Shown: positions 4,901 to 53,955 of the stretch, in pieces
How positions within the stretch are numbered: position 1 is the first letter of the stretch
Layout of the letters: the number at the start of each line of letters is the position of its first letter
Notes under the pieces: model-generated
Seen by the model: only the letters and a program-made list of their open reading frames with translations
Told to the model about the DNA's origin: nothing
Database searches by the model: none
Position numbers and translations under genes: made by a program
Assembly: GCA_944336335.1 (NCBI GenBank)
Contig: CALVLC010000036.1
Location: 1-56,421, forward strand
Reading direction: 5' to 3'
Length of the DNA stretch: 56,421 nt
DNA from: an uncultured Bacilli bacterium
GTDB lineage: Bacteria; Bacillota_I; Bacilli_A; RFN20; CAG-826

Positions 4901-7900
4901 CTATTCAGCTTCTTTAATCCAAACAACCATTTTTTGTTCTTGTGGATCTCTATTTCCTCTCAAATAGAATGGGATTAAAGTTAATTCTCTAACTCTTCCA
5001 TCTTTATTTCCATTAACTTTTAAGATGTTTGTTGGAATAGCGTAAGAGGTCTCTTCATCAATTTTTCTAACAAAAGTTGTTTCATCAAGTTCCACTCTTA
5101 CTTCTTCAGTTTTGGTGATAGTAATTGTATCATCATCGATAAAGTTTTTGTTGTCAATTCTTTCAGCACAATAAACTAATGGTCCATATTTGAAAGCAAC
5201 TCTACCTTGATTTTCTTCTTCATAGTCTTGATACATTCTCATTACTTGTCTATCAAAAGTAATTTCAACTTCATGTTTACCAGAAGCAAGTTCAAAGTTA
5301 ATGTATCCGTCTTCACTAACATTAAATGTATAAGTCAATCCATCAACTTTAATGTCAGCTTTTGTGGACCATGATGGCATTCTAACTTTTAAGTTATATT
5401 TGCCTTCACTTCTGCTTTCAAATTTCATAACGTTTCCTGTTGGAACATCAGAATATTGAATTAATTGAACCTTTGTATTTCCAACTTTTGAATCAAATGT
5501 TGAAGAAACATATTGATTTATAAATAATGTGTCTTCGCTCTTAGCATAAATAATTTCTGGTAACTCAGAATAATATTTTAAGAACATTGGAACACAACAT
5601 GGAGTGACATTTGAGAATTGTGGTCTAACATAGTTGTCTGAAATCATTGGGTTTGTATAATAGAAACTATTTCCATCTAAACCTAAGCAACCAAGAATGC
5701 CATTGTACATTTCAAGTTCAACTTGATCAGCATATTTTGCATCGCCAAAAATGTTAAACATATTTTGACTATAGAAAGCCATACCAACAGAAGCACATGT
5801 TTCACAATATCCATCATGCGGTAATTGATTTGTTCCACCATAAGCTTCATCACCATTCTTTGTTGAACCAGTTCCGCCTGTAATATACATTTGTGAATTT
5901 ACAATGTTATTCCAAATTGAATAAGCAGCTTCAGCAAATGAAAAGTTTTCTTCTTTGTTTGCTAAATATGCCATGCCATTGTACCAAAGATTTGCTCTAA
6001 CTGCGTGTCCTTGAGCTTCTGTAATTTCTCTATAATCTTGATTATCTTGAGCATAAGCACCATTTGAAGTATTGTTATATCTACCCTCTGTGTGACCTCT
6101 TTCAGTAATCCAAGAACAAGCGATGTCATTATATTTATCAAATCTGATATCTAAAGAATAATATCTATCTGATGGGCTGACTCCTTCAAGATTAGAATAT
6201 TTTTTCTCCATATATTCTACTAATTCTGGATTTTCTTTATATAAGAGATAAAGATTTTCCATGGCTTCTTCTGGGAGTTCATGAGGTGGAACAACCATAT
6301 AACCTTGGAAACCATCTCTTCCATAAATATAGTCAACAATAAATTCAGCAAAACGAGTTGCAGCAAATAATAATCTTGTATCGCCAGTGGCTCTATACCA
6401 ATAAGTTGCAGCTTCAGCTAAACAACCAAAGTTATATAAGTCATGGTGCCATCTTCCAGCTGCTTCAGTTTCATCACAAACATAATCATACTTTAATATA
6501 TTATATGTTGAGAAGTAGCCATCAACTGGTTTCCCTCTTCCATCTTTTGCTGTAGTTTTCTTACTTGCTTCAAAGATTTGTTCAATATATTTATCAACTC
6601 TTTCTTGTAATTGATAAGCACTACCAGATAATTTGCTATCATCTTTATTTGTATAAATAAATGCAGCAGCTGCTCTAATACCTTCATAGATTAAACCTTC
6701 TCTCCAAGGTTCATCAATCCATGTCCATGTTGTATTATTAACGTTAGTTGCATCATCTGGTCTTCTAACTTGTCCAGCATGATCAGATAAATTTCCTAAA
6801 ATATGTTTTTCACCTTTTGCAACGCGATCAAAGTTATCAAAAGAATTTGATAGTTCGAACATATCAAACATAAAGTTTACTGTATGAGTTGAATATTGTT
6901 CATACATGTTTGACCAGAAGCCATCGTTTAACTTGACTTCATTTGAAGTTGTTCTTTGAATTTCGTTGAAATCGTATTGCATTTTTTCTCCTTTTATTGT
7001 GTATGTTCTACTATTTTTTCCGCTTCCAACAACAACTTCAAAATGATTGGCGCCAACTTCATTTACAGTTGCTGTATCATCAGAATAATATGTCTCAAAA
7101 GCTATGCTCTCTTTTTTGATATCTTCTTCTAATAATAACGGATAAGAATATGTTGTTGGCGAGAACCCTTTTACTGTTTCACCATTAATTGTGAGATCAC
7201 TTAATGCATTTTCATGTAAATATTCTAATCCCCATTTGCTCTCTAAATAAGCTTCAACAGTTTGATATTCTCCATCTGTTAGACCCCTGTTAAATACAAG
7301 AATTTCCCCTAAATCTCCAGTAAAAGAATCGTTTTCTGCGCTTCCTCCAAGAGAAACAGGAGCTTCAATATCAGGTGTTTTTGTTGAGCCTTTAAATGAT
7401 GATTCAATTGTGCCATTGACACCTACATCAGCGTCTTCGCCACTCTTTCTTCCAGAAATAATTACTGGTGATTCATAATCAAATGATACTTTTGCTTGAT
7501 AATAACTACCTTCTTTAACAGCATCGGCCCAGCCATAATTTAGTTGACTACCTTCAATGTTGAAGAACCGTTCATGATTCCATGGTGAACCATTTGTTAA
7601 GTGCGAGAAAATATCGGCATGATCATAAAGTTCATCAAACTTAGCAACAACAAATATGGTCATATCGTCTAAATTGAATCCAGTATCAGCACCTACTTGC
7701 ATATAAGAATTTCTTGAAAATCTTACTGCAGGTTTCCCGTTTAGTTCACTTGATTTAACAAAACTTGGTTGACGTGCCGAATTATCTTGAGCCGCATCAC
7801 CGTTTCCTTCAAGAGTATATGGTGCTAAGTTTTCTAATGTTGAAACTTTACTTCCATCTTCTAAATCTAATGTAGAAGCATCAAATCTAACCTCTAACCC

Positions 7901-38768: not shown

Positions 38769-40793
38769 TTAAATAATTGGTGATCCAATTCCATGGATCT
38801 CTAATGTATTACAGTTAGTAAAACCACCTTTGTTATAAGTTTCAATTTTTAAATATCTAAAGCTTTGTTCTTCGCCTTCTAAAACAGCTGTGTAGGATTG
38901 TTCATTGCTACCACCATTTTCATTTGCAGTTGTATCCAAGACGTTAATAAATTCTTGATTATCTTTAGAGACGTAAATCTTTAATTGGTAGTTATAGTTT
39001 GCGCCTGGATCTTGATATTTATAGAAAATATCATTAGCTAAGACATTAATCCCAAGGTCAAGATTGATTGTTTCTTTTGTATCGCCAGCAAGAGCACACC
39101 AGAACCTTCCTTGAGCTTGCTTACAATCTTTATTCATAACCATCATATTTTCCCAGAAACCAGCATCTTGGCTTCTAGTTGATGCTGTTGGTTTTGTATT
39201 TAAAGCTAAATTATGAATAAATGATGCAGAATATACTTTAAATGTTGATAAATCAGCAGTTCCAGTTACTTTTACATATCTACATTCTTTGTTAAATACA
39301 GCATAACCATTTTCAATAGTAGGTGTAACAGCTTCAAAGGTTTTGTTATCTAAAGATGTTTCAAATGTTAATCCACTTGCTTCGCCAATATAAATTCTAG
39401 AAAGATATGATTGACTTCCTAAATCCATAACATTTTCAGCGACACTAACATCTTTATTTAATTTAAATCCATTAACTTTCATTTCAGACATTGCTGGCCA
39501 TGCATTTGCTGAATTAGCTTGATTATAATGAACAAGTAAAGAAGAAACCAAATCATTAATTTCAAGTTTAATATAATTAAATTCTTCTGTATTGTTTAAT
39601 AAATTCAATTCATCCTTTTGAATCCATTGACCACCATTTGCAACACTTGCATAATCAACATTGAATTTATGATCTGTTTCATTAGGGAAATATAGTTCAA
39701 TATTATCTACATAATAATCTTCATTAGTATCAATACCCATATAATGGTTATCATGCGGTGAATTACAACAGTGATAATTTCCAGTATTACCATCAAACAT
39801 TTTTTCAGGTTCGAATCCTCCAGCATGGCAATCTGCTAAACCTTTTTGGCCATAAGCAAGATTGATTCCTTCATTTAATTCAGTAAATTCAACTTCAAAT
39901 TCCTTACTGGTTGCAACAATATCACTTTCAGCGATATCCATTTTGATGTAACGATAATAACCAGTTAAATTTCTTTCAAACTTTGAACCAACTGTAGCTT
40001 CTGAATTATCTAATAATGGTACATATGTTGTTCCATCGATGGATCCTGAAATTGTGAAATTCCAAGAAGCCATATCGACAAATTCTTGACTAATATAATT
40101 AACTGATTTTGTAGCACCAAGGTCTAAAGTTAAAGTTTGCGCACTTCCATCTTGTGCTTTCCAATATGTTTCAGCATTTCCATCGGCAGCATAATCAATA
40201 CGATATTCAACACCTGCTTCACTAGTAACTTCAATATTGTATTTTACTTCAACTGGGACCAAGTCAAATTTTGCATATAATTTAATATCACTTGTAATAA
40301 TAGTTGTTTCAAAATCAAATTCTATAGTTAATTCTTTATCACTTGCCCAAAAATCAAACGTGTATCCATTTTTTGTAGGATCAGTAGGTTTTGTGACTAA
40401 TTCTCCTTCAGTAATTTCAAAACTTGTTTCGCCATCAAGTGTTCCACCATTAAGTTCTAATGTGACCGTGAAAGTTTTAACTTCTTCTTCTACTTTTTCA
40501 AATCCAGCATATAAAGTTAAATTTGATGTAATTGCTGTATCGAAGCTAAATTTATCTTCTTCTTTACAATCTGCAGAAGTATACCAGCCAGTAAAAGTAT
40601 AACCATCTTTTTTTGGCTCTTCTATTGCAGTAACTTTTTCTCCTGCTTCTACTGTTTTATCTGTTTTGACGCCATCAACGTTGAATGTAACTGTATAAGT
40701 TTGATTCTCTTCGACTGTAGGTTCAGCTTGACAACTACTCATAGATAATACGCCAAAAGTAGTTAAAGCTAATACTAATAATGCTTTTCTCAT
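38769..40793 (-). CDS. Lipoprotein with two InlB B-repeats and three F5/8 type C domains
   Basis: MSSC lipobox; PKKDGYTFTGWY and PTKNGYTFDFW; ADGNAETYW, MFDGNTGNY and RYLKI discoidin motifs. Confidence 0.8.
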   Translation of the reverse strand: MRKALLVLALTTFGVLSMSSCQAEPTVEENQTYTVTFNVDGVKTDKTVEAGEKVTAIEEPKKDGYTFTGWYTSADCKEEDKFSFDTAITSNLTLYAGFEKVEEEVKTFTVTLELNGGTLDGETSFEITEGELVTKPTDPTKNGYTFDFWASDKELTIEFDFETTIITSDIKLYAKFDLVPVEVKYNIEVTSEAGVEYRIDYAADGNAETYWKAQDGSAQTLTLDLGATKSVNYISQEFVDMASWNFTISGSIDGTTYVPLLDNSEATVGSKFERNLTGYYRYIKMDIAESDIVATSKEFEVEFTELNEGINLAYGQKGLADCHAGGFEPEKMFDGNTGNYHCCNSPHDNHYMGIDTNEDYYVDNIELYFPNETDHKFNVDYASVANGGQWIQKDELNLLNNTEEFNYIKLEINDLVSSLLVHYNQANSANAWPAMSEMKVNGFKLNKDVSVAENVMDLGSQSYLSRIYIGEASGLTFETSLDNKTFEAVTPTIENGYAVFNKECRYVKVTGTADLSTFKVYSASFIHNLALNTKPTASTRSQDAGFWENMMVMNKDCKQAQGRFWCALAGDTKETINLDLGINVLANDIFYKYQDPGANYNYQLKIYVSKDNQEFINVLDTTANENGGSNEQSYTAVLEGEEQSFRYLKIETYNKGGFTNCNTLEIHGIGSPII

Positions 40794-43479: not shown

Positions 43480-45050
43480 TTAATACCTTCCATAATCAAA
43501 CATATCTTTCATTTTCTTAGACCAAGGTAAGACTTCCTCAATGTCGAAGCCTTCTTCGTAACCTAATGTTCCTATAAGATAAGAAAGATATTCAATAGTG
43601 TCTAAATCATTCTTCAAAGAGCTTTCTATAAGGCTAAATAATGATGATGTAATTGGAGCAAAAACTTTACTATTTCCTTTACTTACATAGAACTTAGCCC
43701 CACCTAAAAGCACTTTATAGGATGAGTAATCTATGTCTATACTAATTTTCCCATTATTTAAAAATGCATATATATTCGCTTTTGCTTTTAAAAGTAGTTC
43801 TAACTTTTGCTTTGTTGATTTACTCCCCTTTTCTTTGATGGATTCTACATAATCAAAGAACTTGTTAATTAAAGGAATCAATATTCGATTTCTTTCTTTT
43901 GCAATAGCTTTTTCATCATTCTTATTTTTTCTTCGATTTCTTGCGCATTAAGAATCATATCAAAGTTCATTTCATTAAGATCGATTAACTCTTTTTCAAG
44001 TTAGGTATATTTAGTAGAAGTTAAGAAAGTATCGATTTCTCTAAAAGTAACTACTTCTTTAATCTTTTCTGAATTAGTAATTCCAACTTCATCAACATCA
44101 AGGATAAGATATATTAAGTCTTGATTGTTACTTAACTCATTTAATTTTGAAATCAAATCATCTGATACATCAAAGATTGAAAATTTCTTTTCACTTATTG
44201 CTGAACCAAATATATTCAAGTAGATTTCTCCAGCTTTACGAACTTTTTGGTTCTTAACATCAAGAATATCAATTGGTAATCTACTTAACTTAAAGACATC
44301 TATATCTTCAGCAGCTTCTTTTACTCTATTTATAACTGGTTTAATAATCTCATAGGCTCTAAAAAAGTGATTTGCTAAAGTTTCTTCAGTGATTTCAATT
44401 CTACAATCATCTTTTAAATATTTTGTAGCAAGATATAAAGGATAGTCATTTAAGAAGCATTCAAATAGCAGAAATGAAATTAATGATGGAGATATAAGTT
44501 CATCATCAAATAACTTAGTAGCCTTTGTATCTTCTTCATATATTACCTTACCTTGATTACCATCCTTTTTAAGATACTAATATGTATTGCAACGAGCAAG
44601 ATAAACTTTGTCCTTTAGATTAAATTCTAATTTCTTTGCTATAGTTATTTTATTTAGTTTCTTTAACGAAGGATCATCATCAATTGTTATATTAATATGA
44701 GTTTTCTTTAAATGACTTTCATCAATTTTAACAAATGGTTTAAAGGCCTCGGGACTCTTTTTAATGAACCCACTTGGTAACTTTTTAACTGTCTCATTTA
44801 TAGACGATGAATTCTTATATAACTCATAAGAATCATCTATATCACTAAAATAAATAAGTTTTGAATCACTATTTACATTCTTTTGAAGTATATAAGTTAA
44901 GATTCGTATTAATTTAAGTGATTCTTCTTTGCAATCATTAATTTTTGTTAAAGCTACTATCAAAAACTTTTGTTTTCTATGTTTTCCTGAAGCTTTGTTA
45001 TTTCTTCATCAAAATTTATGTTCTTCTCTTCTTACTTCATGTATTTAATT
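43480..45050 (-). mobile_element. Highly diverged, disrupted IS66-family TnpC-like transposase remnant
   Basis: ISPSLISFLLFECFLNDYPLY..ITEETLANHFFRAYEIIKPV, FLNNGKISID and SLFSLIESSLKNDLDTIEYLSYLI..IEEVLPWS match IS66 TnpC patterns; in-frame TAG at 44577-44579; frameshifts around 43880-44000. Left boundary is approximate. Confidence 0.62.
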
Positions 45051-45339: not shown

Positions 45340-46614
45340 TTAATCAATTTCTTTTATAGGCAAATATGGAATTCCAAATTTTAAAACTTTTTTTCTAAGA
45401 TTGCTTTCTTTATTTGCATAATAGGATGATAAATAATTTCTTTTAAGTTCTGTAAGAGTTGAAATCGAAATATCACTTAGCCCGTTTTCTTTACAGGAAA
45501 AATAATGGTCTTTTTCGCGTTGCATTTCTTTTGGTAGAGAATCAAAAAGTGCGGATCCTATCATATAATCTAAGATTTTAATGTTAATTTGATCTAAATG
45601 CAAAGAAGAAATAAAATCAAAGTTTTCTAAAATCATTTCAACGGTTTCAATAGGAGAACCAATAATAAAATTACCAACTGTAAAAATGCCTTTAGTATTT
45701 GCATAAGTAATAATATCAATTATTTTTTCCTTTGAAATGTTTTTGTTATAAAATCTTAATACTTTTTCAGAAGAATTTTCTAATCCAAAACTAATAATTT
45801 TTACATTAGCATCGTAGGCTAAATCTAATAAATCAAAATCAATGTTTACTGTACTACTTAATGCGATATGCATATCATCAGAAATATTAAATTGTTTTAG
45901 CGCGTTTAAAATATTTTTCGCTCTATTTAAATCAAAAGTAAAATTATCATCTATAATCCAAACATTTTTTACACCCCTTTTTTTTAAATCAAGAAAATCT
46001 GAAATTATATAATCAAGCGAATGTGTTTTATATTGTGAATACCGCCCTTTTCTCTGACAAAAAGAACAGTTATTTAAACAACCTTGAGATGTTTGTATAA
46101 TGTTGGAAAAATTATTTAGTTTATAAAAAGGAATTTGATTTAATAAATCTCTATCAGGAAGGGGTAAGTCATCATATCTTATAATGTCAGAAAAATTGTT
46201 GTTTCCAATGAAATTACCTATAATTTTACAGATATTAAATCTTGGATCTGACTTACAAGTAAAATCGGCATAAGGTATATCTTCTTTTTTTGTTGCACAT
46301 AAATATCCAAACGCAATTACATTAGCATTTGTTGATTTCTTAATCTTACAAATTAAATCATAACCAGAATAAATGTTTTCTGATCTTTTAAGCGAAAAAG
46401 AATCAAAATCAACGAGCACAAAATCTATTGACTTAGAATTAATAAATTCAACTATTGTTCCATCATCAATTTCTTGGCATGATAAATCAAAAAAATAATT
46501 GTCAGATTGGAATGTTTTTTTTAGAATAGCAGATAAATAAGTAATATTAATAGAATACCCGAAACGGAAATGCTTTTTTTCGGTAGGTTTTGGATATATA
46601 AATAAACATTTCAT
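45340..46614 (-). CDS. B12-binding-type radical SAM protein (putative class B methyltransferase)
   Basis: N-terminal Rossmann-like domain (LFIYP..ITYLSAIL); QTSQGCLNNCSFC; IDDNF; SFGLENSSE; GNFIIGSPIET. Confidence 0.82.
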   Translation of the reverse strand: MKCLFIYPKPTEKKHFRFGYSINITYLSAILKKTFQSDNYFFDLSCQEIDDGTIVEFINSKSIDFVLVDFDSFSLKRSENIYSGYDLICKIKKSTNANVIAFGYLCATKKEDIPYADFTCKSDPRFNICKIIGNFIGNNNFSDIIRYDDLPLPDRDLLNQIPFYKLNNFSNIIQTSQGCLNNCSFCQRKGRYSQYKTHSLDYIISDFLDLKKRGVKNVWIIDDNFTFDLNRAKNILNALKQFNISDDMHIALSSTVNIDFDLLDLAYDANVKIISFGLENSSEKVLRFYNKNISKEKIIDIITYANTKGIFTVGNFIIGSPIETVEMILENFDFISSLHLDQINIKILDYMIGSALFDSLPKEMQREKDHYFSCKENGLSDISISTLTELKRNYLSSYYANKESNLRKKVLKFGIPYLPIKEID

Positions 46615-47390
46615 TTTTTCTCAACCTCGATCAACGCTCTTAGACCCCATGCTCCTCCGTCTTCTATCTCATGGTAAGGCCATAATCCATTAGTAATTTG
46701 AGTATTAACTAAAAAGTTATAGGCCTTCCTAATAGGCGAATCATAGTCAATATTTAAATATTCAATCAGAGCAATAATAGCTATTCCTGTGCAGTAAACG
46801 TTCGAACCTACAGGGTGCCCTTTCCAAGGCGCAAATCCTCCATTATCTTCTTGTTGTGTTAAAAGCCACAAAAGTGTATCATGTACAATTTTTTCTTTGC
46901 GCAAGGTCGGTTTTTTTGAAGCAGCCATTAAAAAATAAGCGGCTTTATAAGTAAGAGAATTTTTTTCGGACTCCCACAATTTTTTAAGTTCATTATATTT
47001 TTCTTCACTTCTTAACTCAGGAATCAAATAAAGCAAAATTCCAGTTACAGGAATTCTAGCAATATCCCTTTTTGTTCTTCCCCGAATTAAATTTTCTTTT
47101 TGAGATTTGAGCCGCTCAATTGCCTTTAATCTATTTTGTTCAAATTCTTCGAAATGAGAAAGAAAATATATTGTCCATATAGTATCAGTGTTGCCAACAA
47201 AACCTCCGTCATCTCTTTGCGATGAAACCACTTTTTCAATAAAAGCTTTTGGAATTGATTTAGTAGACATCCCGGCTAACAACAATTGAGAAAATAACTT
47301 GATCTGTCTCCCTAATTCTAAATCTTTCTTTCTCATTTCTTGTGTCATTTTATATAAACACATAAAAGCTTTATCGCTATAAACACTCAT
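46611..47390 (-). CDS. Prenyltransferase/squalene-oxidase-repeat (alpha/alpha barrel) protein
   Basis: QW-type repeats: VSSQRDDGGF, WLLTQQEDNGGF, FLVNTQITNGLW; AIE[CGG]LKSQ. Confidence 0.78.
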   Translation of the reverse strand: MSVYSDKAFMCLYKMTQEMRKKDLELGRQIKLFSQLLLAGMSTKSIPKAFIEKVVSSQRDDGGFVGNTDTIWTIYFLSHFEEFEQNRLKAIERLKSQKENLIRGRTKRDIARIPVTGILLYLIPELRSEEKYNELKKLWESEKNSLTYKAAYFLMAASKKPTLRKEKIVHDTLLWLLTQQEDNGGFAPWKGHPVGSNVYCTGIAIIALIEYLNIDYDSPIRKAYNFLVNTQITNGLWPYHEIEDGGAWGLRALIEVEKK

Positions 47391-48243
47391 AAAAATTAGA
47401 TTCCTTATTTAAAAAAATATCATTAATATCAGTAATATCCAGGAGCCACATAACAAATCTATCAATTCCAAAACCAAAACCTGCTTTTGGTTCTATATTG
47501 TTTTTAGCTGCATCTAAAAACCAACCCATCTTATCGGCAAACTTTAAAAAAGTAAATTTTTTTAAATAAAACTCGTAAGACGTTTCTCTTACTGAATATT
47601 CCACTATCTCACCAATGCGAGGGAAAATTAAATTTCCAGAAAAACCCTTTTTTGCTCTCCACGAAAACGATGTCGGTAGATTAGCCAAAAAAATAGGAAT
47701 TTTTGTTTTTTTACATAAAATATTAGAAACTTCATCAACATTGCCGCGCGAATCTCCAAGCAATTTATCCACCTTTAAAAAATCATAAACGGGGAAAAAA
47801 TTTTTAAAAATTTCCTTTTTATTAATAATAGTTATTTGATTACTTTCTAAATAATTATTAAATTTTTGTATCAAAAAATTTATAAAATGAAATAATAAAT
47901 TTTCAACTTCTATTAAAGTCCCGCAATTCCATTCAACCTCAAGTAAATGGAACTCAGATAAATGTGTTTCATCATTTAAATCATTTCTAAAAGCATGTGT
48001 AACTGTATATATATTCCCAAAAGTCGAAGATAAAGCAGAAAGTTTTAAAGAATTCGATGGTGTCAAAAATAGTGAGTTATTTTTTCCAAAATAAATTGTG
48101 TTTTTAAGGTTATCTACATATTTTTTTTGAACTATGTTTGTATCAACAAAAACAAAATTTTCGTTTTTAAAAAATTCATGAATATATAAAATAACATTTG
48201 AAAGAATCACAAAATAACAATCCTTTTTATTCAACTTTTCCAT
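47377..48243 (-). CDS. Class II aaRS (AsnRS/AspRS-like) catalytic-domain-only paralogue
   Basis: Motif 1 region (HEFFKNENFVFVDT), motif 2 AFRND..HLSEFHLLEVE, motif 3 GFGFGIDRFVMWL; 288 aa with no anticodon-binding OB fold. Confidence 0.85.
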   Translation of the reverse strand: MEKLNKKDCYFVILSNVILYIHEFFKNENFVFVDTNIVQKKYVDNLKNTIYFGKNNSLFLTPSNSLKLSALSSTFGNIYTVTHAFRNDLNDETHLSEFHLLEVEWNCGTLIEVENLLFHFINFLIQKFNNYLESNQITIINKKEIFKNFFPVYDFLKVDKLLGDSRGNVDEVSNILCKKTKIPIFLANLPTSFSWRAKKGFSGNLIFPRIGEIVEYSVRETSYEFYLKKFTFLKFADKMGWFLDAAKNNIEPKAGFGFGIDRFVMWLLDITDINDIFLNKESNFYECL

Positions 48244-49420
48244 AAGTCCAATTCAAAATCCTTGTGCCAAATGACATTTCAAATCCAAAAGAAGTAAAAA
48301 GTCTTATTATTTTTTCATTGTTTGAAAAAGTCTTAGCAATTATATTTGGAAAAATATTACAAAAAAATTCCAAAGCAAATTTAGAAATACCTTTTCCTCT
48401 TTCTTCAGGGAATATGTATATTTCCTCTAATACATGAATATTATGTAATCTTCCACTTTCTCTCATATAACCTACTAGTTTATCTTTTTCTAATATTGCA
48501 AAAGTATGCTTACATGAATTTAAATCTTTTAAAATAGAGCCTCTTTTATCATTAAATGATAAAAACTTTTTATCAATCTCGCTCATTTCTAATAGTTTCT
48601 TCTTTAATATATTTAAATAACAGGGCTTCATTATAACAACGGAGATTTTTGGCAAAGGCTTTTGATCTAAAAAAAGTTTCTTTGAAGTATTATAAAAAAT
48701 ATCTTGTAAAGTACCATTGTCAAAAAAAGAACAAAAAGACTTTATTTCTTCACGATAAGTATATCCTTTCGTAAAATAAATTTTTCCGAAAGGATAATCT
48801 GTACCAAACAAAATCCTGTTAGAGCCAACTATTTTAATTGCATCTAAAATAGTTTGATAATTTCCAACAGTCGACGTCTCAAAATAAACGTTATCGTAGT
48901 TTTTTAGTTTCTTTACATTTTCTAAAACCATATCACTTTCATAAATATGCCCTCTACCCATATGAGCTAAAATGATATCTAATTTAGGTGCAACTCTCAG
49001 TATTTTTTTGATTTGCTTTGGCTTATCAAGAAATGCCGCGTGTATAATAAGTGGTCTTTTATAATACTCTAAAATTTTATAATACAAATAAAGAGAACTT
49101 GAGGGTATCTTTTCGTAGACTACATGGTATTTAGCGCCTTTGAATCCGTTAAAAATATTTTCAACCAAAAAATCATCAAATCTTACAATTGGTAAAATTC
49201 TACCATTAGAATTTATCATAGCCGAAAGCAAGTATTCATTATTTTTATTAGAATCATATCCCATGTCAGGAATCGGTAATCCACAACAAAAATCAACACC
49301 ATTATCATCCATTATTTTTAAAAATGAAGGATAATCATTGTTTAAATTATAATGAAAATTGCTCTCCGAAATTTTGAAATCTTCTAAGCCAAAATGAACA
49401 TGACTATCAATTATTTTCAT
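48227..49420 (-). CDS. Amidohydrolase_2-family metallohydrolase fused to a C-terminal GNAT-like domain
   Basis: IIDSHVH, IIHA, ILAHMG, LFGTDYPF; C-terminal IYIFPEERGKGIS acetyl-CoA motif. Confidence 0.82.
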   Translation of the reverse strand: MKIIDSHVHFGLEDFKISESNFHYNLNNDYPSFLKIMDDNGVDFCCGLPIPDMGYDSNKNNEYLLSAMINSNGRILPIVRFDDFLVENIFNGFKGAKYHVVYEKIPSSSLYLYYKILEYYKRPLIIHAAFLDKPKQIKKILRVAPKLDIILAHMGRGHIYESDMVLENVKKLKNYDNVYFETSTVGNYQTILDAIKIVGSNRILFGTDYPFGKIYFTKGYTYREEIKSFCSFFDNGTLQDIFYNTSKKLFLDQKPLPKISVVIMKPCYLNILKKKLLEMSEIDKKFLSFNDKRGSILKDLNSCKHTFAILEKDKLVGYMRESGRLHNIHVLEEIYIFPEERGKGISKFALEFFCNIFPNIIAKTFSNNEKIIRLFTSFGFEMSFGTRILNWTYGKVE

Positions 49421-49700
49421 CTATTTCTACTAAAAATATAATTTTCTTTTGCAATGCTTCGGAATAAAACAATAATATATCGTCTTTTAAAGTGGTTTTT
49501 TCCACATCAAAAATTTTTGTTAACTCATTTACAATATCATCAATATTTCTTTTTCCATCAGCATTTTCAAGCATTTTAAATGACACTAAGTTTAATCTAT
49601 ACTGATTCCCATCATTCACATTTAAAGCCCGAAAAGAATTGTTTACACTTTTTAGAATAACATCATCATTCAACTTTAAAATTGTTCTTCCATCCAACAT
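49407..49700 (-). CDS. PqqD-family RiPP recognition element
   Basis: 97 aa; GNQYRLNLVSFKMLENADGKRNIDDIVNELTKIFDV..DILLF pattern; GGAGG RBS inside the upstream gene. Confidence 0.87.
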   Translation of the reverse strand: MLDGRTILKLNDDVILKSVNNSFRALNVNDGNQYRLNLVSFKMLENADGKRNIDDIVNELTKIFDVEKTTLKDDILLFYSEALQKKIIFLVEIDENN

Positions 49701-50713
49701 TGAGGATCCTCCGCTAAATAATCATTTGTTAAAGCAAAAGCTACAGCACGGCATCCACCACATTTGCTAATATTTTTGCAATTATGGCACTTACCTTTTA
49801 AATTATTTTTATCTCTAATATCCCATAAGATTTTACTTGAATACCAAGTTTTAAAAATTCCATCAGTAAAAATATTGCCAATAGGTATTTCAAGTCTACG
49901 GCAAGGTAATAAAGTACCATCACACAAAATTGCTAAACAAGTAAAGCCAACAGGGCAAAACCCGCCGACTTTATTATCAAAAGAATTTTTTGACAAATTC
50001 GCCCATAATGGTCTAGTTCTTCTAATTGCTATTTCGTTAGAAAGTTTTTCAGCTTCTAAATTAATTTGTTCATAAATGCGATGTATTTCATCACTAGAAA
50101 TAATATCTTCATTAGCGCTATGCCCACACGGAGTAACTCTTTCTAAAGAAATATAATCAATATTCTCTTTAATGGCTAAACTAATAAAATTAAAAATGTC
50201 ATTTTTATTTTTATTAGTAATTGTAAACATGCTAGATACTTTGAAGTTATATTTTTTTAATAACCTAATACCATCAATAGCCTTATCAAAATTACCTTCG
50301 CCACGCGTAGCATCATGTACATGTTGTGTGCCACCATCAAGAGAGACCTGAATTTCATCGAGTTTATTATATTTCAAAAGTTTTTTGCATATTTCATCAT
50401 CAATTAAAGTTCCGTTAGTAAGGATATGGATAGAACAAATTCTATCTTGCTTATCAAGATAATCAAGCAAAGCAAAAAGAGATTTGCTCATGAAAGGTTC
50501 GCCGCCAGTAAGTGAAATTCTTCCAAACATGTTCCATTTATTCAAAGCTTCAATAATTTTATTAGCAATTTCAATCAACTTTTCAAAAGGTAACTCAAAA
50601 AAATTGTAATCTCCCTGATAACAATGACTACACCTTAAATTACAATAATTTAAAAAATGCCATTGAAAATAAAATTCATTGGCAGAATTTCTTTTATTCT
50701 GTTTATTTTCCAT
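49676..50713 (-). CDS. Radical SAM/SPASM-domain peptide maturase
   Basis: CNLRCSHC, LTGGEP, TNGTL, SLDG; full SPASM CPVGFTCLAILCDGTLLPC..CHNCKNISKCGGC..DPQC. Confidence 0.92.
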   Translation of the reverse strand: MENKQNKRNSANEFYFQWHFLNYCNLRCSHCYQGDYNFFELPFEKLIEIANKIIEALNKWNMFGRISLTGGEPFMSKSLFALLDYLDKQDRICSIHILTNGTLIDDEICKKLLKYNKLDEIQVSLDGGTQHVHDATRGEGNFDKAIDGIRLLKKYNFKVSSMFTITNKNKNDIFNFISLAIKENIDYISLERVTPCGHSANEDIISSDEIHRIYEQINLEAEKLSNEIAIRRTRPLWANLSKNSFDNKVGGFCPVGFTCLAILCDGTLLPCRRLEIPIGNIFTDGIFKTWYSSKILWDIRDKNNLKGKCHNCKNISKCGGCRAVAFALTNDYLAEDPQCWMEEQF

Positions 50714-50741
50714 TTAAAAAATAAAAATTGTTTGATTTAAA

Positions 50742-50885
50742 TTAGTTACAGTTACAGTTTGAGCAGCCAAAACACCAATGACCATTATTAAATTCGTCCC
50801 AAACTTCCTTTGTGAAAACCATGTTTTCTTCTACTAAAAGAATTGGTTTTTCATAAGTAATTTTATTATCCAATTTTTTTTCCAT
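50742..50885 (-). CDS. Putative RiPP precursor, 47 aa: MEKKLDNKITYEKPILLVEENMVFTKEVWDEFNNGHWCFGCSNCNCN (absent from the ORF track)
   Basis: AAGGAGG RBS 8 nt before ATG 50885; YxxP leader motif; Cys/Trp/Asn-rich C-terminus; stop 28 nt before the rSAM/SPASM start. Confidence 0.88.
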   Translation of the reverse strand: MEKKLDNKITYEKPILLVEENMVFTKEVWDEFNNGHWCFGCSNCNCN

Positions 50886-51139
50886 TTTCTTGTCCTCCTT
50901 TTTTATTTTACAACTATAGAAATGATTTTTTCAACAACCAATAAGTAGAATAGTAATGACTGAAAAGAGATTTAATCTCATCAAGTTTTGTCAAATATTA
51001 AGAAATTATAGATTAACTGACGTTTAGTTTTAATAATGGGTTCATAAAATTAATGCAAAAAATCTTAAAAGGGTAAAATCATTATCAAATTTTAGGAAGT
51101 AACTTTAATACAAGTGAAAAATATTATTTAGTTGCTTTC

Positions 51140-52656: not shown

Positions 52657-53955
52657 TTATTTCTTTTTCGTCAAAACCAAATATTTCTTTTCTAATCTTG
52701 CTTTTGATTTCTCTAAACCATCATAAACTTTTTTATATTCAAAATATTCCTTCTTAGCATTCTTAAATACAATTGAATTCTTTTCTCTTTCAGTGGCTAA
52801 TTCTTTATATTTATGATCGAATTCATCATATGTACTCAAAAGAAAACTTCTAATTAAATCACTGAAAAAAGTATTTCTTTTTTTGTAATCTTTCTTTAAG
52901 TCAGAAAATTGATTCTTCGTTTCATCAAATTTTTCTGAAGTAGCATCAAGTTTATTCTTAGCTTCTAAATACTTGTTTTCCAAAAAAGATAACTTACGAT
53001 TCATTGAATTTAGCTTTTCGCTTATTCGATTAATTTCTTGTTTGCATTTAAGTTCTTCTTTTTTGCTTTGATAAATAGCAAGCAATTTTTTGTCGATAGA
53101 TTTACTAACAATTCCTACAACGCTAATATCATCTTTACTACCATTTACACTTAAATAATCAAGATTAGTAATTAAATTACTTTGCAAATCCTCATTATTT
53201 TTGTAAGAATTTAGCAAAAGTTCTATTAAGTCACTGTAAAAATTACTTGTTGATTCTAACGATGAAAATGAATCTTCAACACCATCTGTCCCCATTAAAC
53301 AAGCAACTATATTTTCTTTGCATTCAATTAAAACATGTCTCATTTCATCTAAAGCGTTTTTGTCAGACATTGATGTTGTAACATTAGCAACACAGTTCTT
53401 ATCAATAGGCATTGGATCAAAACTATTACCTTTTTCATCGAAAATAAATATATGCCCATCGCCTTGTTGAATTAAAATTAAATAGCCATCAATTAATAAT
53501 CCACCAAGAAGAGTTGTACCATAAGCTTTAATAATCTCATCATTTGTTAAGCCTTTAGTTGTTTCTATTTTAAACTTAACAATTTCATCCTCACTTATTT
53601 GGTTATTAAAATAATGGTTAGTTACATTTTCAGTCCACCTATTTAAAATTGAAAGCTTTAATTTATAGAAGAAATCTAACTCTTTTTTCTTGTCATTGAA
53701 CAACGTTTCTAAAAACGTCAAATCAACGTCATTAACAATGGATCTTAAAGTTTCAAGCAATACTTCGCATGCAATTTTTGAGCCAAATGCACTTCGAAAA
53801 CATCTTCTATCACCATGTCCATCAGCAACTGCAAAGATTAAAAACTTACCATCACTATCACGATAAGATAAAGAATAATCTTGGCATGGTAAACCTTTTC
53901 TTTTATGCGAGTTTCCTAAAACTGTTTGATTAAATATCAAATAATTTGAAATCAT
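52657..53955 (-). CDS. PP2C-like phosphatase (TerY-P type) with C-terminal coiled coil
   Basis: GNSHKRKGLPCQD, AVADGHG, MGTDGV, KDDISV. Confidence 0.88.
   Translation of the reverse strand: MISNYLIFNQTVLGNSHKRKGLPCQDYSLSYRDSDGKFLIFAVADGHGDRRCFRSAFGSKIACEVLLETLRSIVNDVDLTFLETLFNDKKKELDFFYKLKLSILNRWTENVTNHYFNNQISEDEIVKFKIETTKGLTNDEIIKAYGTTLLGGLLIDGYLILIQQGDGHIFIFDEKGNSFDPMPIDKNCVANVTTSMSDKNALDEMRHVLIECKENIVACLMGTDGVEDSFSSLESTSNFYSDLIELLLNSYKNNEDLQSNLITNLDYLSVNGSKDDISVVGIVSKSIDKKLLAIYQSKKEELKCKQEINRISEKLNSMNRKLSFLENKYLEAKNKLDATSEKFDETKNQFSDLKKDYKKRNTFFSDLIRSFLLSTYDEFDHKYKELATEREKNSIVFKNAKKEYFEYKKVYDGLEKSKARLEKKYLVLTKKK

Follow-up and report, generated by a model that had tools for sequence, protein, structure and literature searches.

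The locus described here raises the question of what kind of molecule is made by an operon in which a short cysteine-rich peptide is encoded together with six enzymes. The operon lies on the minus strand, at positions 50885 to 45340, of a 56,421-nt stretch of DNA (the window; contig CALVLC010000036.1, assembly GCA_944336335.1) from an uncultured RFN20/CAG-826 member of the Bacilli. Our analysis indicates that it is probably a self-contained, horizontally transferred operon for a ribosomally made, post-translationally modified peptide (RiPP) of an uncharacterized family, which we designate type A (core WCFGC[TS]NCNCN). As judged from alignments of homologues, the catalytic signatures of all six enzymes are intact.

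An almost invariant four-cysteine peptide precedes six enzyme genes

Seven co-oriented open reading frames (ORFs) were listed on the minus strand between 50885 and 45340, one encoding a 47-aa precursor (MEKKLDNKITYEKPILLVEENMVFTKEVWDEFNNGHWCFGCSNCNCN; 50742-50885) and six encoding enzymes. A Shine-Dalgarno sequence, AAGGAGG (50894-50900, minus strand), was read 8 nt upstream of the precursor ATG. The precursor stop is separated by 28 nt, without overlap, from the start of the gene for a radical S-adenosylmethionine (rSAM) enzyme, and successive enzyme genes then overlap by 25, 14, 17, 14 and 4 nt. An earlier note on this DNA, made from the sequence alone, had proposed an operon of a precursor and six overlapping enzyme genes, and its five overlaps were reproduced exactly in the ORF list. 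Its domain calls were likewise upheld by Pfam and NCBIfam, except that the labels given to two of the proteins (the toroid and the second rSAM enzyme) need refinement.

The precursor carries YxxP as its leader motif, M.FTKEVW.EF as a conserved block and WCFGCSNCNCN as a conserved core; this core contains four Cys and no acidic residue and ends the peptide in CNCN. No NCBIfam or Pfam family matched it, and the core pattern occurs once in the host genome. Across 36 loci the core W-C-F-G-C-(T/S)-N-C-N-C-N is unchanged. It is encoded by 29 distinct DNA versions, among which alternative synonymous codons are found at every F, C, N, G, T and K position; all two-fold and four-fold degenerate codons vary while the last 11 residues remain constant. 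Because synonymous sites vary and residues do not, comparison of these versions indicates that the precursor is translated and that purifying selection on its last 11 residues is extreme. The Y and P of YxxP are invariant both in type A and in a sister subfamily (type B, below), and the motif is present in 146 of 150 representative precursors.

The enzymes themselves leave room for another reading. Small-molecule metabolism makes frequent use of Amidohydro_2, GNAT, terpene-cyclase-fold and class B rSAM enzymes, and the operon might encode a small-molecule pathway in which the small ORF is not the substrate. We consider this very improbable. A precursor gene accompanies the cassette in every complete locus, at varying positions: before the rSAM gene (the window, L006 and L096), after the PqqD gene (most loci) or after the last gene (L092). 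The core is under strong selection at the protein level, and the cassette encodes a PqqD-type leader-peptide recognition element (RRE), a kind of protein that binds peptides. Tandem precursors that differ from each other were seen in two variant cassettes (L125, features at 1783-2245 and 5625-6461; L123, 480-843): L125 encodes one ending in ..WCFGCTNCTCR and another in ..YPCFHCSCGSHG, and L123 encodes one ending in ..WCFGCTNCQCR and another in ..QFQCFHCNCSDH.

Distribution, transfer and genetic code of the cassette

The same cassette, in the same gene order, was found in at least 36 other loci (L001, L004-L010 and L090-L118), from Clostridia, Negativicutes, Bacteroidota, Synergistota and gut metagenomes. 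L001, a metagenome contig with the same downstream genes, was reached via the fourth enzyme, which resembles an aminoacyl-tRNA synthetase (aaRS); the word-based search with this protein gave only 2 clusters and undercounts the family, since the protein diverges fast. Homologues of the first rSAM enzyme numbered more than 1,100 at E<1e-30, the best 120 being 51 to 77% identical. Three of their neighbourhoods were inspected, and each held the full cassette: L004/L005 (42% GC), L006/L007, and L008/L009 from Lachnoclostridium sp. An131 (GCA_002160825.1, contig NFLI01000034). A scan of species-representative genomes added one more full cassette (L010), and a metagenome scan with the third enzyme, an amidohydrolase-GNAT fusion, added 29 loci (L090-L118). 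In those of the 29 that were sufficiently long, the order was rSAM, PqqD, amidohydrolase-GNAT, aaRS-like, toroid and second rSAM. Co-occurrence of all six proteins had been set beforehand as a test of the earlier proposal, and it was seen across the cassette loci with the order kept.

The limits of the cassette could be read from its nearest relative, L006. Nucleotide homology between the two (70% identity) spans window positions 50882 to 45347 exactly, with none in the flanks; because the homology begins at the precursor and stops at the last gene, the seven genes are the mobile unit. The core pattern was found in none of 400 same-phylum genomes other than the host, and the aaRS-like protein was absent from 40 relatives. 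In L004 and L008, the cassette is bordered by transposases and integrases. A tblastn search of plasmid and phage collections with the toroid gave no match. Comparison of the loci thus shows that inheritance and selection act on the seven genes as a single unit, and that these genes were horizontally acquired.

The window as a whole seems, from comparison with relatives, to sit in a large strain-specific accessory region, since the genes of both flanks (38769-40793 and 52657-53955) had no homologue at E<=1e-20 in 25 same-genus genomes. The host genome is 2.0 Mb at 80% completeness, compared with 0.8 to 1.7 Mb in genus relatives. No flanking gene is conserved across loci except an XRE-type helix-turn-helix regulator in 6 of them, and the Sel1, PP2C, vWA and kinase genes upstream in the window were rejected as parts of the system because they are not conserved beside the cassette. 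The first 158 aa of the PP2C-like protein are encoded a second time in the host, on contig C43, with 87% identity. Directly downstream of the cassette, the window contains fragmentary ORFs (43480-45050) that the earlier note had called an IS66-like relic; they are not common to L006 and fit a mobile-element scar beside the cassette. In L010 (15463-16951), two further genes come after the cassette, one like saccharopine dehydrogenase and the other a 77-aa ORF with a DnaJ-type CxxCxGxG zinc finger; neither was seen at other loci. Rfam and tRNA scans of the window gave no matches, and a promoter and terminator scan gave counts equal to those of shuffled controls, which is uninformative in AT-rich DNA. 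An anti-phage defence system is unsupported: PADLOC matched no specific defence-system model and gave generic rSAM matches alone (pVip and PDC-M51A).

The cassette also carries the mark of its host's genetic code. Four CGG codons occur in it (49630-49632, 47113-47115, 47083-47085 and 46042-46044), and the homologous columns are Trp in 27/27, 24/27 and 27/27 homologues, with one aromatic column. The codon in the PqqD gene falls in a column that is Trp in 27/27 homologues, the two in the toroid gene fall in Trp or aromatic columns, and that in the second rSAM gene encodes an invariant Trp (CQRKGW). In 30 other loci, CGG was never found in a Trp column. The host genome (G000) encodes a tRNA with anticodon CCG (contig C37, 6658-6731, minus strand) that has the tRNA-Trp features A1-U72 and G73. 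Reassignment of CGG to Trp has been reported for an uncultivated RFN20 clade of Bacilli (Shulgina and Eddy 2021, PMC8629427), and the codon data from the cassette agree with this clade in indicating that the host reads CGG as Trp. The advice of the earlier note to recode CGG as TGG for expression was therefore correct, given these columns and the tRNA features. Because the CGG codons sit at Trp or aromatic columns, the cassette is, on this evidence, maintained under and adapted to its host's own code, and the window copy provides independent gene-level support for the CGG code of the lineage.

Two further observations concern the code of this genome. ARAGORN reported an 89-nt tRNA with anticodon CTA and a long extra arm, labelled 'Pyl' (contig C113, 17693-17781, minus strand). 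The aaRS-like gene terminates with TAG at the position where its L006 homologue also ends, so TAG is a stop at least there.

Leader recognition, radical chemistry and the known RiPP classes

The first two enzyme genes encode the part of the system that resembles other RiPP pathways. Pfam and NCBIfam domains and homologues identified the product of the first (49676-50713, 345 aa) as an rSAM/SPASM maturase. It contains CNLRCSHC for the SAM cluster and eight further invariant Cys, which make up a full SPASM motif and fit two auxiliary clusters. The second (49407-49700, 97 aa) encodes the PqqD-family RRE, with a PF05402 score of 36.7 bits against a cut-off of 23.4. PF05402, PF04055 and PF13186 were all above their gathering scores and the precursor is co-conserved, as in RRE-dependent rSAM RiPP systems in general. 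We propose that the PqqD protein would bind the leader through YxxP and the M.FTKEVW.EF block and hand the core to the maturase, which would carry out radical chemistry on the four Cys. The closest solved relatives of the maturase are SkfB (sactipeptide) and CteB (ranthipeptide), followed by SuiB; SkfB was the best PDB match (E 1.7e-22 with a nine-sequence profile). Since SkfB and CteB are themselves formers of thioethers, the most likely products are intramolecular thioethers of the sactionine or ranthionine kind, a prediction that we hold at slightly better than even; another Cys-derived cross-link or a heterocycle would be the alternative outcome.

None of the named classes accounted for this set of proteins. 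The maturase scored 92.9 bits with the ranthipeptide PapB model (NF047865; cut-off 340), 84 with the sactipeptide StsB model (cut-off 625) and below 70 with AlbA (cut-off 850), and ranthipeptide/SCIFF precursor models gave no match to the 47-aa peptide. It reached 106 bits with the mycofactocin MftC model (TIGR03962; cut-off 265), and the precursor ends in CNCN, not in Val-Tyr. With the pyrroloquinoline quinone (PQQ) models, PqqE gave 69 bits against 381 and PqqD 32 against 46. The remaining rSAM models also stayed below their cut-offs (ACGX, 157/400; WgkB, 164/650; GeoRSP, 130/400; SbtM, 148/350; SynChlorMet, 120/400), as did the PqqD-type models GeoRSP PqqD (30/100) and WgkC (20/110). No NCBIfam system model reached its cut-off, which supports the earlier reading of the operon as an rSAM RiPP system that depends on an RRE and has a tailoring set outside the named classes. 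A full-text literature search with the core strings and the enzyme combination found nothing; most papers in subscription journals lay outside it, so an earlier description is possible.

One rival reading of these data is an ordinary thioether RiPP of the ranthipeptide or sactipeptide kind, in which the maturase forms Cys thioethers and the rest is routine methylation, acetylation and amidation; the system would then add a member to an existing class and would not found one. A Cys-rich C-terminal core with rSAM/SPASM and PqqD is indeed the standard signature, shared with SkfB, CteB (thermocellin) and PapB (freyrasin), and SkfB and CteB are the closest solved homologues. Each kind of decoration also has a precedent in RiPP tailoring, since class B rSAM methylases, GNATs and Asn-synthetase-like amidases are all used there. 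The precursor is unrelated to those of the known members, however, and the class models scored far below their cut-offs. Furthermore, a conserved toroid, an Asn-synthetase-type ligase, a class-B-type rSAM enzyme and an amidohydrolase-GNAT fusion belong to the unit here, and the toroid with its aaRS-like or AsnB-type partner is conserved in both subfamilies, archaeal loci included, unlike optional decorations. We consider the ordinary thioether RiPP unlikely.

A second possibility is that the operon makes a cofactor or metal-binding prosthetic molecule derived from the peptide, on the pattern of mycofactocin (MftA-F) or PQQ (PqqA-E). The invariant C-terminal residues of the peptide would then be cross-linked, cut out by the amidohydrolase and put to use within the cell. 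Those systems likewise modify the C terminus of a short conserved precursor with an rSAM/SPASM enzyme and a PqqD chaperone, and they include an amidohydrolase-type enzyme and no exporter. The core is invariant across phyla, as in PqqA and MftA, no exporter or immunity gene is conserved, and the CxxCxxCxC spacing resembles metal or Fe-S ligand motifs. In L090 (553-1913) and L091, moreover, genes for a creatininase-family protein, the family of MftE, and for a TehB/TPMT-like SAM methyltransferase overlap the 5' end of the operon. We nevertheless regard this explanation as rather unlikely. The MftC, PqqE and PqqD models were far from their cut-offs, and the precursor lacks a C-terminal Val-Tyr or a Glu/Tyr pair. 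The cassette is mobile and sporadic, with no conserved client enzyme linked to it, which disfavours a classical cofactor, and the sister subfamilies have different cores, which would be unusual for a universal one.

Two of the remaining enzymes have proposed steps of their own in the type A pathway. The amidohydrolase-GNAT fusion (48227-49420, 397 aa) was assigned from Pfam and conserved residues. Its residues 1-250 form an Amidohydro_2 metal hydrolase/decarboxylase domain, in which H7, H9, H127, H153 and D208 are invariant, and residues 280-390 form a GNAT (Acetyltransf_1) acyltransferase domain with an invariant R341-G342-x-G344, the R-G-x-G motif for coenzyme A. It might cleave an amide, possibly at the leader-core junction, and then acylate the freed amine, a suggestion we make with considerable doubt.

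The last gene (45340-46614, 424 aa) encodes the second rSAM enzyme, assigned from its Radical_SAM domain and from an AlphaFold2 model (predicted local distance difference test score [pLDDT], 88) searched with Foldseek. An N-terminal Rossmann-like domain followed by an rSAM core (CLNNCSFC) gives it the two-domain class B architecture, as in TsrM and MgmA. TsrM, MgmA, AprD4, OxsB, CysS and TokK were the best Foldseek matches, those to TsrM, MgmA, OxsB, CysS and TokK having E values of about 1e-15 to 1e-12. MgmA, a peptide Gln C-methylase that acts on methyl-coenzyme M reductase, is also the nearest sequence relative with a structure and the best match in sequence and structure together. The three-Cys cluster of the MiaB/RimO methylthiotransferases is absent from the N-terminal domain, where C106 alone is invariant. 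The enzyme would transfer a methyl group to an unactivated carbon or carry out a second radical step, and we give this assignment an even chance.

The toroid, its adenylating partner and the predicted product

The two genes between the fusion and the second rSAM enzyme set the cassette apart from the classes considered above. The upstream one (47377-48243, 288 aa) encodes a protein like the catalytic core of a class IIb aaRS, asparaginyl-tRNA synthetase (AsnRS), as assigned by tRNA-synt_2 (PF00152) and profile alignment. Its PF00152 score of 78 bits (cut-off 25) places it in the class II aaRS catalytic fold. Five divergent members were combined in a profile, which aligned to residues 139-428 of Pyrococcus horikoshii AsnRS (1x54) with E 3e-35, and also to the 294-aa archaeal asparagine synthetase A; AsnRS and this archaeal enzyme were the best PDB matches. 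The alignment begins at 1x54 residue 139, and the protein has neither the OB fold nor any anticodon-binding domain. Three features do not vary among five divergent cassettes: Arg86 of motif 2, Arg262 of motif 3, and the E-x-E that follows motif 2. Like archaeal asparagine synthetase A (3p8t, 1nnh) and EpmA/GenX, it is therefore a core of about 290 aa that lacks the anticodon-binding domain and keeps motifs 2 and 3 intact. It differs from them in that its gene lies within a peptide-modification operon and its scores are well under the equivalog cut-offs (AsnRS, 84.6/414; AsnA, 49.9/309; EpmA, 51.7/287). Identity is 23 to 28% between cassettes whose rSAM proteins are 56 to 61% identical, so by these alignments the aaRS-like protein is evolving much faster than the rest of the cassette.

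The adjacent gene (46611-47390, 259 aa) encodes a single-domain (alpha/alpha)6 toroid, identified from an AlphaFold2 model (pLDDT, 95.3) with Foldseek and from weak Prenyltrans/SQHop matches. The best structural matches were drimenyl diphosphate synthase, squalene-hopene cyclase and MstE (TMq, 0.65 to 0.77; identity, 12 to 15%), followed by the thioester domains of complement and alpha-2-macroglobulin. Neither LanC nor a prenyltransferase beta subunit was among the top 50. The alpha/alpha-barrel of the earlier label, a prenyltransferase-fold protein, thus stands, but the resemblance is to class II terpene cyclases, with which the toroid shares QW-like Q..DGG[WF] repeats, and not to prenyltransferase beta subunits or LanC. 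It departs from those cyclases in being a single domain in a peptide operon that has no isoprenoid genes, and in lacking the DxDD proton donor: this motif is absent from the family (62 sequences), where of the Asp motifs D61 (Q..DGG) and R108-D109 are invariant. The other invariant residues are G62, G63, W72, Y148, K149, Q180, W189 and H240. Zinc-ligand signatures (Asp/Cys/His or Cys/Cys/His) are also absent, the sole conserved Cys being the nearly invariant C200.

The pairing of these two proteins is clarified by the sister family. The scan of species-representative genomes gave second-tier loci in Desulfobacterales (L012), Thermoplasmatota (L013), Ca. Methanoperedens (L015) and Thermoanaerobaculales (L018), whose rSAM proteins are 37 to 47% identical to that of the window. 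The sister family, to which proteins P0249-P0392 also belong, is larger than type A and occurs in Desulfobacterales, Acidobacteriota and archaea. The second-tier loci contain the rSAM/SPASM, PqqD and toroid genes and a homologous precursor, ..YEKP..M.F....EEFNGGRFC.QCSSCHGC[KSR], with a C.QC..CH.C[R] end. They have no gene for an amidohydrolase-GNAT fusion, an aaRS-like protein or a second rSAM enzyme. A profile search of 1.84 billion representative proteins gave 266 precursor clusters, and among the best 150 of these, 115 are type B and 22 are type A like the window. L013 and L015 also have in common an unannotated protein of about 600 aa with no Pfam match.

In L015, the toroid gene adjoins one for an asparagine synthase of the AsnB type, which scored 385 bits with TIGR01536 (cut-off 267). 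The AsnB-type proteins of L015 and L012 retain the N-terminal glutaminase Cys, and that of L013 is the synthetase domain alone. Domain assignments thus indicate that two non-homologous asparagine-synthetase folds fill the same slot beside the same toroid. Asparagine-synthetase chemistry consists of adenylation of a carboxylate followed by amide formation, and AsnB-type enzymes are used in RiPP pathways both as the lasso cyclase and as TsrC, the C-terminal amidase of thiostrepton. These, too, activate a peptide carboxylate with ATP, as proposed here; in type A, by contrast, a non-homologous class II aaRS fold would have that job, and there is no lasso B2 protease.

Asp and Glu are absent from the cores of types A and B, which leaves the C terminus as the single carboxylate of the conserved core, and both ligases would probably cap or activate it. 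In the type A pathway, the AsnRS-like ligase and the adjacent toroid would adenylate a peptide carboxylate at the expense of ATP and yield an amide or other acyl product. Its most likely target would be the alpha-carboxylate of the invariant C-terminal Asn, given that the core lacks acidic residues, with amidation or activation for cyclization as the result; we put this a little short of an even chance. An aaRS-like gene and a precursor were both detected in 24 cassettes, and in every one of these the peptide ends in Asn. L125, the one type-A-like cassette examined whose precursor has a terminal Arg, is without an aaRS-like gene and carries a third small rSAM gene instead; it is the sole informative variant in this comparison of ligase type with C-terminal residue, L123, L124 and L126 being too short. 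The association of the ligase with a terminal Asn is suggestive, as far as these sequences go, and not strict.

The same enzyme could instead add an amino acid, activating free Asn or Asp and ligating it to a nucleophile of the peptide in the manner of EpmA, which acts on EF-P by amino-acid ligation. EpmA/GenX models did match the N-terminal half of the protein (51 bits), and the Glu-x-Glu and the Arg aligned to the 'SQRE' element of AsnRS are kept, which would suit free Asn or Asp. We think such an addition quite unlikely, as the AsnB-type enzyme in the sister slot keeps its glutaminase nucleophile, pointing to transfer of ammonia and not of an amino acid, and in the class IIb substrate motif S-x-Q another residue stands in place of the Gln.

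That replacement, to Ser or Ala in all five aligned cassettes, is also one of several observations that weigh against the maturation scheme proposed for type A. Each catalytic step was deduced from homology. The maturase gave equally weak scores for enzymes of other chemistry (WgkB, SbtM and AhbD). The Amidohydro_2 domain has as its nearest structures gamma-resorcylate decarboxylases (weak matches), not peptidases. For the second rSAM enzyme, the earlier description as a cobalamin-type methylase holds at the level of the fold, but the Pfam B12-binding model (PF02310) was not detected at E values up to 5 and AprD4, which has no cobalamin, matches the fold equally well, and cobalamin use is only putative. 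L090 and L091 keep the terminal Asn and, in place of the aaRS-like gene, carry their creatininase-family and SAM-methyltransferase genes, from which it follows that the ligase would be dispensable in some variants and its link to Asn not strict. Finally, neither an exporter nor an immunity gene nor a dedicated protease is conserved among 29 loci, which fits neither a classical bacteriocin nor a metallophore.

The predicted product of the type A operon is a compact, cross-linked and end-capped peptide of about 11 to 13 residues. The lack of conserved export, immunity and protease genes, together with the invariant core, disfavours a classical bacteriocin and fits a cofactor-like or metal-binding molecule, and the product may act as a signal or have metal or redox activity. 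The conserved toroid-ligase module and its tailoring set have no described precedent in the resources that could be searched, and the system overall is still a radical SAM RiPP. A more far-reaching reading, which we think less likely than not, is that the two subfamilies form a new RiPP class, found in bacteria and archaea, that is defined not by the rSAM step but by the toroid and an interchangeable AsnRS/AsnA-like or AsnB-like adenylating enzyme acting on the C terminus of a four-Cys peptide, and that the product is not an antibiotic but a conserved peptide-derived molecule with metal or redox activity. To our knowledge, such a toroid-adenylating enzyme module has never before been linked to peptide maturation, and we know of no established role in it for either an aaRS core or a terpene-cyclase toroid.

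RiPP discovery has leaned on the recognition of known class-defining enzymes. The family described here comprises hundreds of precursor clusters (50% identity) and over 1,000 maturase homologues, from microbes of the gut, rumen and sediment as well as from archaea; it has no family name, and we found no literature on it. The swap of a synthetase core for a non-homologous asparagine synthase in the sister family provides a concrete and testable hypothesis about its chemistry. The horizontal spread of an invariant 11-residue product among gut anaerobes probably reflects a specific molecular target or a metal or redox function.

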